A program made the translations under genes and the position numbers. The notes beneath the pieces were generated by a model. The model saw only the letters and a program-made list of their open reading frames with translations. It made no database searches and was not told the DNA's origin. From IMG/VR virus record IMGVR_UViG_3300006925_002811: a DNA stretch of 20,000 nucleotides. One strand, written 5' to 3'. This stretch comes from an uncultured virus (IMG/VR IMGVR_UViG_3300006925_002811). Its lineage: Duplodnaviria; Heunggongvirae; Uroviricota; Caudoviricetes. Each line of letters begins with the position of its first letter. The stretch's first letter is position 1. Below are positions 4,886 through 16,484 of this stretch, piece by piece.

Positions 4886-5350
4886 ATGAACGGTTTCAAG
4901 GTACAGTTTGAAGAGATAAGAGCAGTTTGGGAAACCAAACTTTGGCCTCATCGCGAAAGTGCAATAGAGCCAATGAGTGTAATGACTTGGCCTTTTGAAG
5001 GCGACCCTGATGAATATGATATGAGTATATTAGACAAGTATACCCCTACATTCTTTGGAGTAGCAAAAGACCGTAAACTAATAGGTGTGAACTCAGGACA
5101 CAGAACATCAGATATGCATTATCGCAGTAGAGGTATTTGGGTTGATCCTAAGTATAGAAAATCTGGTGTTGCACAATATCTATTTAATGTAACTGAGTTA
5201 CAAGCAAAAAAAGAGAACTGTGAAATGATTTGGAGTTTACCAAGAGAAACCGCCTTAAGTGCTTATACCAAATTTGGCTTTGAAACTGTCGGCGGCTTTA
5301 TTAAAACTGAGACTTCAGAGTCTAATATTTATGTTAGGAAGATTCTGTAG
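4886..5350 (+). CDS. GNAT family N-acetyltransferase
   Basis: Acetyl-CoA motif A (RGIWVDPKYRKSGVA) and motif B-like ALSAYTKFGF. Confidence 0.85.
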   Translation: MNGFKVQFEEIRAVWETKLWPHRESAIEPMSVMTWPFEGDPDEYDMSILDKYTPTFFGVAKDRKLIGVNSGHRTSDMHYRSRGIWVDPKYRKSGVAQYLFNVTELQAKKENCEMIWSLPRETALSAYTKFGFETVGGFIKTETSESNIYVRKIL

Positions 5351-5894
5351 ATTCCTGTGCTTTGGCTCTTGCTTCTCTAACATCTGATAAGTATTGTACC
5401 ATAGTATCAGCATCACTAACTTGGAATGGATCGCCATCTGCGTTATCATCAAAACCAGGTTCAATAAACATTTGTTCTACAATACCGTTATCAATAACCA
5501 TACTGTATCTCCAACTTCTATAACCAAATCCAATATTAGATTTATCAATTAGGAAACCCATTTTTCTTGTAAACTCGCCGGCTCCATCTGGAACAGGTTT
5601 TACATTTTCTACTGATAGGCTCTTAAACCAAGAGTTCATAACAAAACTATCGTTTACACTGATACAATATACTTCGTCGATATCTAAATCTGTGATATCG
5701 TTATACGCGGCTTCGTATCCTGGTAAATGTGTACTTGAACAAGTTGGTGTGAATGCACCTGGTAAAGCAACAAGTACTACTCGTCTGCCAGTAAACATTT
5801 CACTAGTAAGCATATCTTTCCAAGCAAATCCAGGTGCTTCGTCAATTTGAATTCTAGTTTTAAATGTTACGTTAGGTGTTGTTACATAAAACAT
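5334..5894 (-). CDS. Peroxiredoxin (Prx5/type II, redoxin family)
   Basis: PGAFTPTCS peroxidatic-Cys motif, SVNDSFVMNSW, RSWRYSM; SD-like AAGGA upstream. Confidence 0.93.
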   Translation of the reverse strand: MFYVTTPNVTFKTRIQIDEAPGFAWKDMLTSEMFTGRRVVLVALPGAFTPTCSSTHLPGYEAAYNDITDLDIDEVYCISVNDSFVMNSWFKSLSVENVKPVPDGAGEFTRKMGFLIDKSNIGFGYRSWRYSMVIDNGIVEQMFIEPGFDDNADGDPFQVSDADTMVQYLSDVREARAKAQESTESS

Positions 5895-5922
5895 ATTTTT
5901 TCCTTTATAATTATACGGGTAT

Positions 5923-7128
5923 TTATTTTACCTTTACTAGTGCTTTGGCTAATTCTTGGCAAAGTTTTTTACAATCTGCATCATCGTTATATGGAGCATA
6001 CGATATTCTTACTATACCTTTACCTCCGCTTATTCTATCTACTATAGGGTGAGCACATACTTTACCAGTTCGTATAGCAACGTCTGTGTTTGACATTAGT
6101 TGTCCTACATCAGCACTATGTCCTTTGATAGGTATTAAACTTATTACATTTGTGTCAAATCCTAGTTCAGGATATACTCTACAATTAGGTAATACATCAA
6201 CACCATAACTAAGTAAACTCTGTAGTACATCTTTCTCTTGTAAATATATAGTAGGATAACCTACATATCTTATCATTTCACAAGCAACACCGAAGCCAAT
6301 AATGTTTGCAATATCCGGTGTTCCTGGACAATGTTTTGCTACACCTTGTTTTAGTGATACACTATCAAACGACACTGAATCAACTGCGCCACCGCCATAG
6401 TAAAGAGGAACTAAGTCTTCAAAATCAAATGACGTATATAATGCTCCAATGCCAGTTGGTCCATACATTTTGTGTGAACTAAAAACTGCAAATTCAACTT
6501 TTGTTTTTGTTAAGTCTATTTTTTTGTGTGCTACAGTTTGACAAAAATCTATACATACACTAGCACCGTATTTGTGTGCTAAGTCAGTTATGGCTTCCCA
6601 TGGTTGTGTAACTCCTGTTACATTACTTGTAGCACAAAAACTTACTAATAAATCTTGCCAACCTCCAGCATGTTTATCTAGTAGTTTTTCTAGTTCGTAT
6701 AAGTCAATTTCACCATTAAAATCATTTATAGGCATAACAGCAATACTATCGTCTGACGTACTTTTACCTTGTGTTAGCCAAGGAACAATATTAGCATTAT
6801 GTTCTGCTTCTGTTACAATAACAGTTTTCTTATCTCTCATCCAACGTGCTATCATGTTTAAGCCTTGCGTTGTACCAGCGGTAAACATTAGTTGACTTGC
6901 AGGAACATTAATAAGGTTTGCTACTTGTTCTTTTGCGGTTTCTACTGCAACAGCAGTTCTCTCGCTGATAGCATATTCGCCTCTGTTTGTGTTAGAGCGA
7001 AAATGTTCGTAGTATTCATTCATTGCCTTTATTACTGACTCATGTGTTTGAGTACTGGCGGCGGAATCGAAATATGCTAATTCTGGGTTGTTGGCAAGAG
7101 TAGGGAATGATCTCTTTAGGTCAAGCAC
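5923..7128 (-). CDS. sufS: Group II (SufS/CsdA-like) PLP-dependent cysteine desulfurase, divergent
   Basis: YFDSAAST, SSHKMYGPTGIG (PLP lysine), catalytic Cys in IRTGKVCAHP (canonical RxGHHCA); GTG start overlapping the clpS stop. Confidence 0.85.
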   Translation of the reverse strand: MLDLKRSFPTLANNPELAYFDSAASTQTHESVIKAMNEYYEHFRSNTNRGEYAISERTAVAVETAKEQVANLINVPASQLMFTAGTTQGLNMIARWMRDKKTVIVTEAEHNANIVPWLTQGKSTSDDSIAVMPINDFNGEIDLYELEKLLDKHAGGWQDLLVSFCATSNVTGVTQPWEAITDLAHKYGASVCIDFCQTVAHKKIDLTKTKVEFAVFSSHKMYGPTGIGALYTSFDFEDLVPLYYGGGAVDSVSFDSVSLKQGVAKHCPGTPDIANIIGFGVACEMIRYVGYPTIYLQEKDVLQSLLSYGVDVLPNCRVYPELGFDTNVISLIPIKGHSADVGQLMSNTDVAIRTGKVCAHPIVDRISGGKGIVRISYAPYNDDADCKKLCQELAKALVKVK

Positions 7129-7424
7129 TATAGTTCTTCTGTAATAATCTGTAAAGGATGTCCTGCGTGACGAGATACAACCGTTGCTTCATGTACTTTT
7201 TGTTCGGCTATCTCTAATGAATAAGTTGCGACTATACTTTTACCTGACTCATGAATTTGTACAGTTATATCCTGTGCTTCTTCAATGTCCTTATTGAATA
7301 CTTCAATAAGCAAATGTATAACAAACGGCATAGGAGTAAAGTCGTCATTGAGGAAAATAACATTATATCTTTTAGGAAATGTTATCTCCGTTGCTGTTCG
7401 CTGTTCTGTTTTAGTTTGTGCCAT
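7128..7424 (-). CDS. clpS: ATP-dependent Clp protease adaptor ClpS
   Basis: YNVIFLNDDFTPMPFV, QIHESG, EIAEQK and HPL motifs of the N-degron adaptor. Confidence 0.93.
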   Translation of the reverse strand: MAQTKTEQRTATEITFPKRYNVIFLNDDFTPMPFVIHLLIEVFNKDIEEAQDITVQIHESGKSIVATYSLEIAEQKVHEATVVSRHAGHPLQIITEEL

Positions 7425-7429
7425 ACATC

Positions 7430-7437
7430 TATTTATA
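7430..7437 (-). promoter_or_regulatory. T4-type late promoter TATAAATA for clpS-sufS
   Basis: Exact TATAAATA on - strand, 5 nt before the clpS ATG. Confidence 0.75.
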
Positions 7438-7452
7438 TATGTGATAGTGTCA

Positions 7453-7476
7453 GGCGACTATCTTTTGGTAGCCGCC
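7453..7476 (-). terminator. GC-rich stem-loop after hsp20 (terminator or mRNA-stabilising hairpin)
   Basis: GGCGGCTACC-AAAA-GATAGTCGCC 16 nt after the hsp20 stop; no U-tract follows, so termination is uncertain. Confidence 0.5.
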
Positions 7477-7492
7477 CAACTACGTTACAGTT

Positions 7493-7951
7493 TTAGGAAA
7501 TGTCAATTGTTTTAGGTTTCATTGCCTCTGGCACGTTCCTAAACAAATTAACCCTTAGTATGCCATCTTCTAGTTTGGCACTTTCTACTTCTACATAATC
7601 AGCAAGTTTGAAAGTTCTTGTAAAGTTCCTTTCAGCAATGCCTTTGTGTAAAAATTCAACTGATTCGTCAGTATCTATAATGTTGGTTTTTCCTTCAACT
7701 TTAAGAGTACCATCTTCAATTGAGATGTCTATGTCCTTCTTTGTAAATCCTGCAACTGCTAAGGTAATAGCATACAACGGCTCTTCTTGTCCTTCAACCA
7801 TTTGTTTTGTAATGTTGAAAGGTGGGTAACCTGTTTGTGCAGTAGCAAATGATGGGTCATTGAAAAACTGGTCTGCTAGTCTATCAAAACCGATGCTCAT
7901 TTTATATAGTGGGGATAATGATTCAGATGTGAATCGTAATTGCTTTGTCAT
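7493..7951 (-). CDS. hsp20: Small heat-shock protein Hsp20 (IbpA-like)
   Basis: SIGFDRL, YPPFNI, LAVAGF, FLHKGIAERNFTRTFKL, AKLEDGIL and C-terminal I-x-I motif; AAGGAG SD. Confidence 0.95.
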   Translation of the reverse strand: MTKQLRFTSESLSPLYKMSIGFDRLADQFFNDPSFATAQTGYPPFNITKQMVEGQEEPLYAITLAVAGFTKKDIDISIEDGTLKVEGKTNIIDTDESVEFLHKGIAERNFTRTFKLADYVEVESAKLEDGILRVNLFRNVPEAMKPKTIDIS

Positions 7952-8012
7952 TGTTTTCTCCTTTATTAAGCAAGTTATAATACTTTTTAAACCCTATTGG
8001 CGAATAAAAAGT
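7952..8012 (-). promoter_or_regulatory. ROSE-like RNA thermometer in the hsp20 5' UTR
   Basis: mRNA reads CUUGCU-UAAUAA-AGGAG-AAAACA-AUG, with the U(U/C)GCU motif placed to pair with the SD; upstream hairpin ACUUUUUA...UAAAAAGU (7982-8012). Confidence 0.65.
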
Positions 8013-8014
8013 TC

Positions 8015-8500
8015 GCGGATCAGAGGAGCATTCGTTAGTGTGTGTCCTGTTCCTCTGTTCTACTTGGTAAACTTCTTCGTGTCTTTAAGTGTTGCCATCT
8101 AAAGCCGTTTGTTGGTTACCCCAAAAACCTAAAGCATTTATGTATTTCTACACCTATGTCTAGGGTGATTTGTATCAGAGCGTCTACTTGAATTTGATTC
8201 TCTCTCTTATCTGTGATATGCTATACATTACTGCGGAACATATCTGATCGTAATACAATCAATTTTGTTTATTTCTAAACTTGGTCTGTTAAACCCGAGC
8301 TGTACAGTAACTTAATACCGAGCTCTTTTGAAGATTTAACTTCCCTTTAAGTTAGTTAGTCGTCCTGACCAATCATTCGGTTTGTTTCACTTACGATTCA
8401 CTTACCTTGTATTAGAAATTCTTTCTTCCTAACTGCTTCTAAGTTCTACAGTAGACTTTTGTTACTTACGTTTCAATTGCCCTTGTAGTTCTTTTCTGCA
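8015..8500 (-). ncRNA. Large structured non-coding RNA, ROOL-like (~490 nt)
   Basis: No ORF >60 aa on the - strand in a ~600-nt gap of a tightly packed genome; starts just after an ATAAATA late promoter; at least ten stems, including GNRA-capped hairpins (GUUUA-GAAA-UAAAC, GUGUA-GAAA-UACAU, CCUA-GACA-UAGG); motif order resembles ROOL RNA as recalled, not searched. Ends approximate. Confidence 0.75.
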
Positions 8501-8514
8501 AAGATATTTATCTT
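8501..8514 (-). promoter_or_regulatory. T4-type late promoter core driving the ncRNA (and possibly hsp20)
   Basis: ATAAATA at 8505-8511 inside a short inverted repeat AAGATA-AA-TATCTT. Confidence 0.65.
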
Positions 8515-8560
8515 CTGGTGTTAATAATATGGTACTTTTTGGGTAAAAAATAGACTATTT

Positions 8561-8839
8561 TTAAGAAAAACTAAAAGATCTTAGTGATTCCAGTGGTAAA
8601 TCATTAAAACTTAGTTCAAATAGGCCTGCGTCAGTGGGTTGGTTAAATTGTGCTTCTATTATAATTTTAGGCGTGTAGCCGTCAACGTCCCAGGTACGCA
8701 CAAACTCTACATTAACTTCCTTATTAGAACTTTGCCATTTAAAGAAAGGTCGCAATGTAGATTGTACCATATCATCTAATATCCAATCTTCTACAGAATC
8801 GTTATATCGGGCATCAAGTATTTTAACTCTTGTTTTCAT
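8561..8839 (-). CDS. Hypothetical protein
   Basis: 92-aa ORF overlapping the upstream gene, co-oriented with the - strand block. Confidence 0.7.
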   Translation of the reverse strand: MKTRVKILDARYNDSVEDWILDDMVQSTLRPFFKWQSSNKEVNVEFVRTWDVDGYTPKIIIEAQFNQPTDAGLFELSFNDLPLESLRSFSFS

Positions 8840-9023
8840 ACTTCTCTAATTTTTCAAACTCGCTAACATGTATGTAGATGTTTCCTTCAGCATTTACAAA
8901 TGTATGATACTGTTCTAATCTAAAGTTTTTAGTACGCTCATCAAGTAGGCCTACATTAAATTGTCTCATTACAAAAGAATGAAATTCATGTACTGTTAAT
9001 GCTTTGTAAGTTTCAGTTTCCAT
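8823..9023 (-). CDS. Hypothetical protein
   Basis: 66-aa ORF, TAATG-coupled to the upstream gene. Confidence 0.7.
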   Translation of the reverse strand: METETYKALTVHEFHSFVMRQFNVGLLDERTKNFRLEQYHTFVNAEGNIYIHVSEFEKLEKYENKS

Positions 9024-9451
9024 TACACTATTACCTTTACTAAGTTCATCATAACTGCCGTACCACTTATAGCACTACCAATCATAATTGCTTTGTCGTT
9101 CCAGCAATGTCCTACATACACCCAGGATATGGCGGCTAATAAATATGCAATTTGTCCTATTGTACTAAAGCCTGCACTCATTATAAACACACCTAATACT
9201 CCAAACACAGTTGCTACCCATTTTACATAACTGTCAACTGTTCCTGTTGGTGTTGCAGGTTTTAAGTCATCAACTTCAGTTTGTAGTACATCCATCTCTT
9301 CTTTGAGACGTTTACGTTCAGCATTTAATTCTAGAGCAAGACGTCCAGCACGACTCATTGTACTGTCTTTAAATTGCTCCTGTACGTCAGAACTTAATTT
9401 AGATTCTACTACTTCTTGTTCCACCTTACTCATCTCACTCATAACATCCAC
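9023..9451 (-). CDS. Small 3-TM membrane protein with N-terminal coiled coil (DUF6552-like); paralog of the adjacent gene
   Basis: ATP...YVKWVA...W-x-x-VG-x-x-W-x-D-K-A pattern shared with 9439-9759; three hydrophobic segments; start could be 9442. Confidence 0.7.
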   Translation of the reverse strand: MDVMSEMSKVEQEVVESKLSSDVQEQFKDSTMSRAGRLALELNAERKRLKEEMDVLQTEVDDLKPATPTGTVDSYVKWVATVFGVLGVFIMSAGFSTIGQIAYLLAAISWVYVGHCWNDKAIMIGSAISGTAVMMNLVKVIV

Positions 9452-9759
9452 GGACCTATATAATCCCTAAATAATGTTCTAGCAAAAAGCATTATGCCTA
9501 CGCCATTTAAAAGCATTAATGCTCTATCTTTCCAAAGTATACCTACAATCATCCATCCTGTTACACCAACTAAACTTAATACAAGATCATAAAACTGCAA
9601 ACCATCAATGCCTCGCAAACTCATACTTGACAGTATAAAACAACTGGCTATCCATTTGATATACCAACTTGCATCATACTTAGGTGTTGCACTTTTATAA
9701 ATTCTATTACTGTTAGCAATCTCTTCTGGATGAAATGTATTACCTTTCTTGTTTTTCAT
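9439..9759 (-). CDS. Small 3-TM membrane protein (DUF6552-like)
   Basis: SATPKYDASWYIKWIAS...GWMIVGILWKDRALMLLN; three hydrophobic segments; ATG at 9759 (MKNKK) preferred. Confidence 0.75.
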   Translation of the reverse strand: MKNKKGNTFHPEEIANSNRIYKSATPKYDASWYIKWIASCFILSSMSLRGIDGLQFYDLVLSLVGVTGWMIVGILWKDRALMLLNGVGIMLFARTLFRDYIGPWML

Positions 9760-9919
9760 AATTCTCTGTTCCACTTGGTGGATTCCTATCAGTTCCGTTT
9801 GAACCTTTGTGTTCTTTTTTCTTACCCCAAATGCGTTCCCAACTATCTGCGTACTTGTCTTGGTCCTTGCTTATTTTTGACTTTATACTGTCTCCAGTTA
9901 TGTCATTCTTACTTGTCAT
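9740..9919 (-). CDS. Small hypothetical phage protein
   Basis: MTSKNDITGDSIKSK...YADSWERIWGKKK; start at 9919 overlaps the end of the upstream Zn-finger ORF. Confidence 0.65.
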   Translation of the reverse strand: MTSKNDITGDSIKSKISKDQDKYADSWERIWGKKKEHKGSNGTDRNPPSGTENYEKQER

Positions 9920-11851: not shown

Positions 11852-13123
11852 TTAGTGTGCGTTCCATTTAACTTTACTAAAATCAACACCGTCTAAATAC
11901 ATATCCCATAAAGGTGATAGTATTCTAAGTTTTTCAATAACATTGAGCATTGTTTCGGCAACACTATCAACTTCTTCTACAGTAGTTGTTCTTCCAAAAC
12001 TAAACCTAATACTACTGTGTGCTAACTCGTCATCTCTGCCAATAGCTCTAAGTACATAACTGGGCTCTAAACTAGCACTTGTACATGCACTACCACTGCT
12101 TACAGCAACGTTGTCTAGTGCCATAATCAAAGACTCGCCTTCTACAAAGTTAAAACTTATGTTGAGTATGTTTGGTACTTTGTGATCTAATGAGCCATTA
12201 ATATATGTTTCTTCTATACCTATAAGTTTTTCTAGTAATCTATCATGCAACATTTTAACATGTTGTTTATTTTCTTCCATTTCAAGCCTAGCATACTTAA
12301 ATGCTTCACCCATTCCTACAATTTGATGTGTAGGTAATGTTCCGGACCGCATACCTCTTTCGTGTCCACCACCGTGTATTTGTCCTCTTAATCTTACTCT
12401 TGGCTTTTTTCTAACATACAATGCACCAATACCTTTTGGACCGTATGTTTTATGAGCAGATAAACTCATTGCGTGTACTGGCAGTTCTTGTAAGTTGAAG
12501 TCTATTTTACCAGTTGCCTGTGCGGCATCAACATGAAACATAATTTTATTTTCAAAACAAAACGCACCAATCCCTTCAATATCATTGATTGTGCCCATCT
12601 CATTATTGATATACATAATGCTAACAAGTATAGTATCGTCTCTAACAGCATCTATAACCATTTGTGCTGTAACTATACCATCTTCATTAGGATCTAAGTA
12701 TGTAACTTCAAAGCCTTGGCGTTCTAATTCTCTGCAAGGATCTAATACTGCTTTATGTTCTATTTTACTGGTTATAATGTGTTTGCCATTAGTTTCATAA
12801 AATTGTGCTATACCTTTAACAGCAAGATTATCTGCTTCAGTGGCTCCACTAGTAAAAATTATTTCTTTAGGATCTGCACCAATTAAGTCTGCTACATTCT
12901 TTCTAGCAGTTTCAACGGCCTCATCTGCTGTCCAACCAAAACTGTGACTTCTACTTGCTGGGTTACCAAACTCTCCATCTTCAGTCATGTACTTAACCAT
13001 AGATTCAACTACACGTTTATCGCAAGGTGTAGTAGAAGCATAGTCCATGTAAATTCTATCCCCAGTAGGCTGGGCCTTGGTGTCTATTGTTGCTGTTATA
13101 TCTCTATGTTGTTTATGATCCAT
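11852..13123 (-). CDS. iscS: Group I cysteine desulfurase IscS
   Basis: [26 protein letters not shown] (PLP Lys), SSGSACTS catalytic loop, proteobacterial-type C-terminus [18 protein letters not shown]. Confidence 0.97.
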
Positions 13124-14797: not shown

Positions 14798-15223
14798 TTA
14801 TCGTAAACCGGATGATCTAAGATGTCTATCAACAGCAGACTTCTTATCTGAATACTTCCTTCTCTTACGTTTGGATTTCATAAACGCAAACCCTGATACT
14901 TCTTGTAGTGGTGCCTCACCTGAGTAGATTTTTTTGTTCTCTTCTCGTTGTGTTCTTTTGATTGCGGCATCTTTTCGTCTTTTACGTTTAGCACTAGGCT
15001 TTTCGTAAAACTCTCGTTTTGCTAATTCTTTTTGCCTATCTGCATTTTCTAAAATTTTCTTTAGTTTTCTGATAGCACCATTAACATCACCGTTTCTAAC
15101 TTCAACACTAGCACCCTTGAACTTATCTAAAAAGTTCTCTTCTTTTCTAGGACCTTTCTTATTATTGAACGACTTTTTAAAGTTGTTCCCGGTGTTCTTG
15201 CCCCAGTTATTTTTGTTTGCCAT
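14798..15223 (-). CDS. rpsU: Phage-encoded 30S ribosomal protein bS21 with long basic N- and C-terminal extensions
   Basis: Core VEVRNGDVNGAIRKLKK...ELAKREFYEKPSAKRKR matches the bS21 pattern. Confidence 0.88.
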   Translation of the reverse strand: MANKNNWGKNTGNNFKKSFNNKKGPRKEENFLDKFKGASVEVRNGDVNGAIRKLKKILENADRQKELAKREFYEKPSAKRKRRKDAAIKRTQREENKKIYSGEAPLQEVSGFAFMKSKRKRRKYSDKKSAVDRHLRSSGLR

Positions 15224-16484
15224 ATATTCCTCGGTATATTCTATAGTTAGTGTCTATCACTGTTTGTCCATTATCGTATTTTAATAATGGAAAATTTTGT
15301 TCTTCTACTGGATATTTATGAAACTCTATCTCATTCACACCCTGTTTTCTGAGTAGTGGTGCCCTGTACATTATACTCAATAATGTATTCTCTATCAACG
15401 TCTTAAGTCCTCTAGCACCTAACTCCGACCTGCTGGCAATCTTTGCCACTTCGTCTAAATACTCTTTACCTATGTTAAGATTTATATCATCAAGACTTAT
15501 AAGTTCTTTGTATTGATCAACAATATTGTTATCAACTGTATCTAATATTTGTCGTAAATGTTGTTGGTTTAATTCCTCAAGTACTGCTATAACAGGTACC
15601 CTACCAACTAGTTCAGGTATAAGACCATATTGTACAATGTCTTGAGGTGTTGTTTGATTGAGTATAGTATTCTTTTCTTCGGTTGTAATAAGTTTGGAGC
15701 CAAATCCTATTTGAGAATTTTTAGTTATGTTTTTAGAAACAATTTTGTCTAGTCCTACAAACGCACCACCTAATATAAACAATACGTCTTTTGTATCAAA
15801 TTCTATTGTGCTGTCTTGAAACTTAGTATTAGACTTACTTGTTTTAATCTTAACTATAGTACCTTCTATCAGTCTTAAGAGTGCTTGTTGTACTCCCTCA
15901 CCACTAACATCGCGTGTAGAGGAGTTAGATTCGCTCTTACGGGCCTTTTTATCTATCTCGTCTATGTAAACTATACCCTTTTGTGCTTTATCGAGGTCCC
16001 AGTCAGCAATGCTCAGCAGACGCTCTAAGACGCTCTCTACGTCTTCTCCAACGTATCCTGCTTCAGTTAGTGTAGTTGCATCAGCAATAGCGAACGGTAC
16101 TTGTAATTTTTTAGCAAGTGTTTTAGCAAACAATGTTTTACCTGTTCCTGTTGGACCAACTAATAGTACATTTGTTTTATCTATTTCAATTGATGTCTGT
16201 CCTAGTATTCTTTTATAATGATTATAAGCACTAACTGATAACAGTTCTTTGGTATCGTTATGTGCAATTATATGTGAATCTAGAAACTGTTTAATATCTT
16301 GTGGATTAGGAAGGTCCTCTAACTTTAATGAATTTTCATTTGTTTCACCTGCTGAAACTACAATATCGTAACTCAATATGATACATTCATTGCAAATGTA
16401 AACATTTGGACCTGCAATAAGTTTGTCTACGTTGTCTCTATTTTTTCCGCAAAAACTACATTGCAGATTTTTATTATCTGGCAT
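15207..16484 (-). CDS. clpX: ATP-dependent Clp protease ATPase subunit ClpX
   Basis: Zn-binding CSFCGK...ICNEC, Walker A GPTGTGKT, pore-1 GYVG, Walker [24 protein letters not shown] loop, GARGL. Confidence 0.96.

Follow-up and report, generated by a model that had tools for sequence, protein, structure and literature searches.

A giant, modular RNA upstream of hsp20 in an uncultured marine phage, ending in a predicted ROSE-like switch

The closest described systems to the locus analysed here are the leaders of small heat-shock protein (sHsp) genes and the large ornate RNAs of bacteria and phages. A ROSE-like thermometer is defined by an imperfect pairing of U(U/C)GCU with the Shine-Dalgarno sequence (SD) in the 3'-proximal hairpin, by a stable hairpin before it and by the sHsp gene that it precedes; ROSE elements have two to four hairpins, the 5' ones being stable, and short two-hairpin ROSE-like forms are known from ibpA of Pseudomonas (PMC3669281). 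In Escherichia coli, IbpA binds the stem-loops of its own 5' untranslated region (5'UTR) and those of ibpB and rpoH and represses translation, and protein aggregates titrate IbpA away from its RNAs (PMC10410725). ROOL RNAs adjoin tRNAs and/or sit in prophages of Firmicutes, Fusobacteria and rumen/gut communities (PMC5737381). The Fremin 2023 catalogue from IMG/VR contains at least 17 unnamed candidates within 25 bp upstream of Hsp20/IbpA genes, and the six of these that were examined are 53-86 nt long and come from marine viral contigs (PMC10690425). The DNA studied here is a stretch of 20,000 nt, referred to as the window, from an uncultured virus of the Caudoviricetes (IMG/VR IMGVR_UViG_3300006925_002811). 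A 609-nt gap upstream of its hsp20 gene was found to be a structured RNA on the minus strand, in two parts: the ornate RNA (~8015-8498) and a short leader beside the gene (7952-8011). As a whole, the RNA is a very large and modular version of the leaders found before phage hsp20 genes, with a putative ROSE-like switch at its end.

The window's leader is similar to the Pseudomonas-type ibpA ROSE element (PMC3669281) in its position in the 5'UTR of an sHsp gene and in the order of a stable hairpin and a weak U(U/C)GCU:SD hairpin with a non-standard pair, and phages distantly related to that of the window have a complete leader of just ~60-70 nt, as in the Pseudomonas type. It differs in being phage-borne, in its score with the Rfam ROSE model (14 bits, below the cut-off of 43) and in the 290-520 nt of extra conserved structure which the family has upstream of the short leader. 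To our knowledge, no described ROSE element is preceded by such additional conserved structure. The E. coli ibpA 5'UTR (PMC10410725) likewise precedes an sHsp gene, has several stem-loops and depends on its RNA structure for control; the window's leader is five to eight times longer, and the two are likened by context, not by sequence similarity. With ROOL (RF03087; PMC5737381) the ornate RNA has in common that it is large, ornate, of a kind often phage-borne and without an assigned function. GOLLD, OLE and other large RNAs of Rfam 15 resemble it in size class, in GNRA tetraloops and in a variable periphery around conserved cores, whereas no model of these RNAs matched. We know of no large bacterial RNA of the GOLLD/OLE kind that is fused to a gene leader. 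Large structured RNAs with this much covariation are, as far as we know, rare and mostly without a function; here a handle on function is provided by the constant fusion to the thermometer-like leader that precedes an sHsp gene, together with the reshuffling of the modules by phages and the presence in marine RNA libraries from nine studies.

An earlier note, made from the sequence alone, had described a large gene-free gap with the motif ATAAATA just upstream of it and a large ornate non-coding RNA on the minus strand, and both descriptions were borne out. The gap (7952-8560) is without a minus-strand open reading frame (ORF) of 40 aa or more, and the motif is located at 8505-8511. The folding energy of the minus strand of 8005-8505 was -112.9 kcal/mol, compared with -93.2 +/- 5.2 kcal/mol for 100 dinucleotide shuffles (z -3.77; 0/100 as good), and the plus strand resulted in a z of -0.26 with 38/100 shuffles as good. 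No conserved ORF was found in 67 leaders, the median longest ATG ORF being 29 aa sense and 20 aa antisense; the corresponding lengths in the window's leader were 14 and 11 aa.

Two covariance models were built from hand-curated helices and the family was realigned to both. These alignments are fitted to the structure and hence biased in its favour; read with this bias, 90.9% of the cells of the 3' domain (98 sequences, 90 distinct) were paired, compared with 72.4% after shuffling and 28-47% after sliding, 25 of 32 pairs were changed on both sides, and the score was 0.507 versus 0.175, a value reached by 0/500 shuffles. The corresponding figures for the 5' domain (62 sequences, 58 distinct), which carry the same bias, were 91.6%, 77.0% and 29-36%, with 24/34 pairs changed on both sides and a score of 0.364 versus 0.135 (0/500 shuffles). 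At least nine helices have covariation support, and they are arranged in two domains plus a variable middle. The strand was assigned as minus because the G-U pairs would be C-A on the other strand; the earlier note had used the same argument, and one pair of helix P1 is G-U in 58/58 rows. The features of the locus are listed below from the 5' to the 3' end of the RNA, with the loci of relatives designated by L numbers.

8561-8839, minus strand: 92-aa ORF, the upstream border of the gap
8505-8511, minus strand: ATAAATA, T4-late-promoter-type motif; the window reads GATAAATA
8015-8498 (ends approximate), minus strand: ornate multi-domain RNA with 5' domain, variable middle and 3' domain; evidence from fold z, covariation and RNA-library contigs
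8496-8499 with 8435-8438, minus strand: P0, closes the 5' end; in the family 4/4 pairs changed on both sides, 94.4% of cells paired
8447-8487, minus strand: P1, long irregular hairpin with the GNRA tetraloop GUAA at 8466-8469; 8/13 pairs changed on both sides
8429-8434 with 8350-8355, minus strand: P2, long-range helix; 6/6 pairs covary
8371-8413, minus strand: P3, hairpin module with the second GUAA loop at 8391-8394, closed by C8395-G8390; evidence from the family alignment
8297-8334, minus strand: middle module with UCUUCAAAAGAGCUCGG at 8318-8334 and helix 8321-8325 / 8297-8301; compensatory changes in relatives
8140-8280, minus strand: clade-specific expansion of small hairpins; in close relatives only (L214, L266, L250, partly L201)
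8116-8120 with 8066-8070, minus strand: P_A; 5/5 pairs covary, 99.8% paired
8099-8107 with 8078-8088, minus strand: P_B, inside P_A, with the conserved loop UGGCAAC; 6/6 pairs of the inner helix covary
8021-8057, minus strand: P_C hairpin with a nearly invariant 17-nt loop (8031-8047); 8/9 pairs changed on both sides
8012-8020, minus strand: linker of constant length with a conserved GCGA; RNA-library contigs end there
8005-8011 with 7983-7989, inner part 7999-8002 with 7992-7994, minus strand: P_D, stable hairpin I of the short leader; evidence from covariation
7958-7973, minus strand: hairpin II of the short leader, UUGCU 7969-7973 with AGGAG 7958-7962, closing pair U7968-A7963; 90 distinct rows
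7493-7951, minus strand: hsp20, 152 aa; PF00011 E 1e-17, phrog_432 E 6e-36

The case for covariation is independent of the fitting because many distinct compensatory variants predate it. Before any fitting, P_A was seen as GGUAA/UUACC, GGUAU/AUACC, GUCCA/UGGAC, GGCAA/UUGCC, CCCUA/UAGGG and more. The variants of P2 include AUGUAG/CUACAU, CGUUUUA/UAAAACG and AACCUUU/AAAGGUU, and this helix encloses a small hairpin, P3 and a small variable hairpin. P0 is weak in the window, with 2/4 pairs standard, and the second copy of the twin middle module is degenerate there. Apart from the helices, the ornate RNA is marked by its pair of GUAA tetraloops and by several loops and unpaired A-rich stretches that do not vary. 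P1 and P3 are alike in sequence, and in L060, L067 and L213 the position of P3 is occupied by a P1-like copy; the likeness suggests an internal duplication.

The 12 individual stems proposed in the earlier note fared unevenly. The stem at 8021-8057 corresponds to P_C with its compensatory changes, and the stem at 8297-8325 was supported for its GAGCU/AGCUC part (GAGCAC/GUGCUC in relatives) and for that part alone. The expansion contains hairpins at 8267-8280, 8246-8260, 8215-8244, 8151-8167 and 8140-8153 and a helix around 8176-8206, and single compensatory changes in L250 or L067 were found in several of these stems: GAAAUG/CAUUUC at 8215-8244 and UGUU/AACA at the GAAA hairpin 8140-8153, both in L250, and one variant (L067) at the GAAA hairpin 8267-8280. 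The stems at 8246-8260 and 8151-8167 showed no informative variation in the family. The remaining proposals were replaced. The supposed loop GGUAA (8116-8120) of a UUGG/CCAA stem at 8112-8124 pairs with 8066-8070 instead, forming P_A; the 5' partner of UUGGUC 8367-8372/GACCAA 8281-8286 is absent in the nearest relatives, L214 and L266, and 8371-8375 belongs to P3; the stem at 8445-8455 is the 3' strand of P1; and the stems at 8412-8432 and 8337-8354 overlap the covarying P2.

Three further candidates were rejected. The 5' arm of a local hairpin GCGAA/UUCGC (8012-8016 with 8000-8004) varies uncompensated, and the competing P_D covaries. RNAalifold paired CGUAAGU, the motif of the GUAA loops, with an ACUUGC close to the SD, and this pairing was dropped because the GUAA motifs are tetraloop hairpins. 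Putative CsrA-type GGA sites in the P_C loop are unconserved in the second clade.

The family was found to be marine and viral. The upstream gap was common to 4/40 viral loci with a relative of hsp20; scanning with patterns and searching with profiles resulted in 17 distinct family sequences, and a metagenome scan yielded 112 loci of marine sources, of which 106 were confirmed. Relatives are also present in many viral contigs. Set aside as chance or unrelated matches of the viral scans were six loci, seven loci of another scan and most of the 114 loci of a further one. In 185,579 prokaryote genomes, four pattern matches, about the chance number, were obtained and none was confirmed by model R1; blastn of the gap against 50,697 GenBank phage records gave no match. 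The earlier note had proposed collecting homologs upstream of hsp20, and this was successful: an hsp20-like ORF lies directly downstream in 98/99 non-identical copies, with strong covariation. A P_C-loop pattern blind to context gave 14 loci, all of which continue to the hsp20 ATG, and the same holds for every true match of two 5'-domain patterns. The canonical 5' domain is missing in 10/72 family loci.

With Rfam 15 gathering scores, no ROOL, GOLLD, OLE or other match was found in the 20-kb window. At E<=10, the region 7900-8620 gave six chance-level matches (E 0.17-5.9) to small unrelated families and none to ROOL, GOLLD, OLE or HEARO. The ROOL model RF03087 (574 positions, cut-off 99.1 bits) did not match at E<=10 anywhere in the 62.6-kb viral record to which the window belongs, and the control genomes gave no match either, so that this search is without a positive control. 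Full-text literature searches, which did not extend to the sequences catalogued by Fremin or to the marine psRNA groups described in Shi et al. 2009, gave no description of the RNA. The Hsp20-upstream candidates of Fremin, compared by description and not by sequence, probably overlap the short leader; the main text contains 'heat shock' 0 times and no thermometer reading, and no ~480-nt entry was seen among those searched (PMC10690425). The ornate RNA family is absent from Rfam 15 and, as far as these searches reach, undescribed.

The T4 late promoter has the consensus TATAAATA at -10 with the start a few bases downstream. ATAAATA is located 280-600 nt upstream of the ATG in 67/72 full-length family sequences and is unchanged throughout three family alignments, which is compatible with the earlier claim of a start just downstream of a late-promoter-type motif; the ornate RNA is predicted to start a few bases past it. 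The distance from ATAAATA to the ATG is ~290-630 nt in the family, and many relatives have a sigma-70-like TTGATT-N18-TATAAT just upstream of ATAAATA. No promoter-like or terminator-like site was found on the minus strand between the ornate RNA and hsp20.

The short leader has the features by which ROSE-like elements are defined: the 5'UTR site of an sHsp gene, the imperfect U(U/C)GCU:SD pairing and the stable 5' hairpin. P_D, with 10 pairs, 98.8% paired and 5 of them changed on both sides, is predicted to form from 10 to 45 C. In hairpin II, UUGCU:AGGAG consists of U.G, U-A, G.G, C-G and U-A and is invariant in 90/90 distinct rows, and the pair that closes the hairpin reads U-A in 51 rows and A-U in the other 39. 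UCGCU variants were found in L349 and L357. Model R1 also matches 30/35 more distant phage hsp20 loci over just ~90-110 nt beside the ATG; there, a TTGACA...TATAAATA promoter is followed directly by a P_D-homologous hairpin, ACUUGCU and the SD. RNAfold prefers to pair CUUGCU with AAGCAA of hsp20 codons 3-5 (window 7940-7976). Owing to this preference and to a ROSE_3 score below the cut-off, 7952-8011 is considered ROSE-like in its presumed mechanism, outside the curated model, and its response to heat is a prediction. The 5'-terminal UUGC is also able to pair with the same codons 3-5; the Lys-Gln codons are conserved as protein, and the codon pairing is inseparable from the coding constraint. 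A regulon of genes sharing AACUUGCU plus SD was considered and rejected, as within the 62.6-kb record the hsp20 site alone has this context and no other gene was found with it. In jumbo-phage relatives, hsp20 is not the only gene with a short leader of hairpin, ACUUGCU and SD: another lies before a small ORF starting with MSK, ~2.2 kb upstream of hsp20 and behind the same TTGACA...TATAAATA promoter type (L013 698-851, L014 692-846, L023 747-838, L024 757-863, L027 232-321, L030 766-855).

Modules of the ornate RNA were also found in other hsp20 leaders. The motif UCUUCAAAAG-GAGCUC-GG was present at 101 viral loci: 27 of the ornate family, 55 of a simpler leader and 19 of something else. The simpler leader, of ~170-200 nt, occurs in many marine viral contigs before a different hsp20 type of 135-139 aa. 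Its order is promoter, outer helix GAGAAC/GUUCUC, two UCUUCAAAAG motifs, P_D-like hairpin, U(U/C)GCU and SD, and the GAGCUC boxes of the twin motifs pair mutually (GAGCAC/GUGCUC variants) with a variable insert between them. Examples are L331, L338, L344, L346, L352, L367, L372 and L396; one insert variant is nearly identical in dozens of contigs and was also seen as a loose end in the RNA run X2. L355 and L361, with the 135-aa hsp20 type, contain two P1-like AAGGG...GUAA...CCUAC modules plus the twin module, and because their orders differ the building blocks appear to have been shuffled between phage lineages. At gathering score, Rfam 15 gave nothing relevant in 20 + 16 loci of relatives, simpler leaders included. 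Judged from these comparisons, phage hsp20 leaders form a mosaic set of which the window's RNA is the most elaborate member. Rfam 15 contains neither the ornate RNA, whether this acts in cis or in trans, nor the two simpler types of hsp20 leader. Two unrelated RNAs were noticed near such genes: a glutamine riboswitch (RF01739, 53 bits) on the minus strand of L010 (16-64), a viral contig with a distant hsp20, and a tRNA gene a few hundred bases from hsp20 of the simpler type (L349 1147-1216, L352 1141-1210, L360 8-77, L396 619-688).

The best reading of these data, with a probability of about 0.5, is that the ornate RNA is transcribed along with hsp20 and serves in cis as a regulatory platform for this gene, to which the sHsp itself may bind. 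It is preferred because of the strict coupling to hsp20, which holds across divergent phages and two hsp20 types, the lack of an intervening promoter or terminator, and the modular architecture. The ornate RNA and hsp20 would be transcribed together from the late-type promoter, in relatives also from the sigma-70-type one, and the ornate RNA would set the amount of Hsp20 in cis; to do so it could steer or override the thermometer hairpin, bind an oligomeric protein, or both. The most likely protein partner would be the sHsp itself, as with E. coli IbpA on its own leader: the repeated conserved modules would suit an oligomeric sHsp, and autoregulation of the IbpA type would explain both these modules and the strict hsp20 linkage. 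In competition with the SD, GGCAA of the P_B loop could also pair with UUGCU, and the ornate RNA may afterwards persist as a stable 5' fragment. If it acts in cis, no heat-shock gene known to us would have a leader nearly as elaborate, and phages would be rebuilding a host-type thermometer.

Several observations weigh against the cis-regulatory platform. The proposed P_B loop/UUGCU pairing and the sHsp binding rest on invariant bases, to which covariation is blind. Relatives manage with the short leader alone, and the ornate part is therefore dispensable for basic hsp20 expression. The Rfam ROSE gathering score was not reached in the window, ROSE_3 matching 7946-8009 with 14 bits against 43 (E 4.5). 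ViennaRNA did not give the UUGCU:AGGAG hairpin for 7940-8014; it cannot, however, score a G.G pair. The size, the GNRA loops and the invariant loops exceed anything known to us for sHsp leaders. Finally, among the matches listed, no contig of the window's genotype bridges 8020-8034, and the contigs of one RNA library (X1) end at 8014/8015.

This last point leads to the RNA libraries. Among the matches listed, 23 public runs from nine studies hold part of 7900-8600; 17 are on record as RNA, and their shares of the sampled words are 0.42-0.63. Four RNA libraries have contigs that together cover 8014-8491; the four runs were examined as contigs, which cannot show RNA ends, strand or level, and they gave no contigs on 8520-9100 or 7300-7726, which is evidence neither way. 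In X1, a 454 RNA library of 10.4 million letters, a 464-nt contig equals 8015-8478 exactly, and a second contig ends at 8014 and continues with a T run and adapter-like letters. The T run reads as the tailed 3' end of a minus-strand RNA. In X2, one contig covers 8034-8491 and another 7752-8020, and a 634-nt contig of a relative spans P_C, P_D and ~500 nt further into hsp20. The contigs hint at both a fragment ending just 3' of P_C and read-through.

The ends at 8014/8015 fit a released RNA at least as well as a leader, and a discrete trans-acting RNA, cut or trimmed just 3' of P_C and borrowing the strong hsp20 promoter, is the main alternative, though less probable than the cis-regulatory platform. 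The end lies in the conserved GCGA linker of constant length, the X2 contigs of the window's genotype are separate, and relatives have the short leader in full but lack the ornate part. Such an RNA might be a protein sponge or scaffold, a ribozyme or a self-assembling RNA, for example a decoy of the host sHsp/IbpA that lifts heat-shock repression, IbpA being an RNA-binding repressor of rpoH (PMC10410725). The two conserved GUAA tetraloops, the invariant loops and the repeated modules would suit these roles, and the palindromic GAGCUC could also pair between molecules. Strict coupling to hsp20 across divergent phages and both hsp20 types would, in contrast, be needless for a free-standing RNA; the relative's contig crosses the junction into hsp20, the contigs would look alike for a stable decay remnant, and the rest of the 62.6-kb record gave no second copy of the ornate RNA. 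On this less probable though tenable reading, the ornate RNA would represent a new class of large non-coding RNAs of phages, set free from the hsp20 transcript to serve as a multivalent sHsp decoy or scaffold or as a self-assembling or catalytic molecule. Acting in trans, it would be a new phage RNA aimed at host proteostasis; released, it would mean that uncultured marine jumbo phages reprogramme the protein-quality-control response of the host, and it would count among the phage RNAs that are often detected in ocean metatranscriptomes.

It is improbable that the ornate RNA is a passive stabiliser or folding aid which protects the 5' end of the hsp20 mRNA and helps the thermometer fold, with no sensing or partner. 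For each of the three leader types, the predicted start of the transcript lies at the base of a helix, and the 5' hairpins of ROSE elements have been discussed as aids to folding and stability (PMC3669281), but in relatives a single hairpin suffices for this, and the invariant unpaired segments, loops and two tetraloops kept across ~100 divergent copies imply specific contacts.

The shortened ROOL RNA, or ROOL sister class, proposed in the earlier note can practically be discarded: both RNAs are large, multi-helix, GNRA-rich and phage-carried, but no covariance-model match to ROOL, GOLLD or OLE was found at the gathering score in the window or in 36 loci of relatives, nor at E<=10 in 7900-8620, nor for ROOL at E<=10 in the 62.6-kb record, no helix could be matched with one of ROOL, the context is hsp20 with 0 tRNA genes in the 20-kb window in place of tRNAs or prophages (PMC5737381), the family is marine and viral with 0/4 pattern matches confirmed among the prokaryote genomes, and the window's RNA, with ~560 nt between promoter motif and ATG, is one of the longest in the family and not a shortened form. 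The note's fallback, that a ROOL miss with strong covariation would indicate a new RNA class, matches the data, which add the modules common to other hsp20 leaders.

The 62.6-kb record has an estimated completeness of 27%, and two family records are 110-119-kb fragments estimated to be 30-32% complete. A more distant complete relative of 337 kb carries a T4-type Gp23 capsid gene. The T4-like jumbo phage of the earlier note is thus plausible as a large, marine, T4-like phage, with Gp23 seen in the distant relative. Genes for proteostasis and redox functions are numerous in the 62.6-kb record: ClpS, ClpX, a ClpP-like protease, peptide deformylase, two class-V aminotransferases and peroxiredoxin. 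Such host-like genes are dense around hsp20 (window 5334-7424, 11852-13123 and 15207-16484; G000 553-1059 and 52346-52933), and both class-V aminotransferases near hsp20 are cysteine-desulfurase-like. At 9023-9774 of the window, DUF6552 is matched by two neighbouring small ORFs (E 7e-9 and 2e-19).

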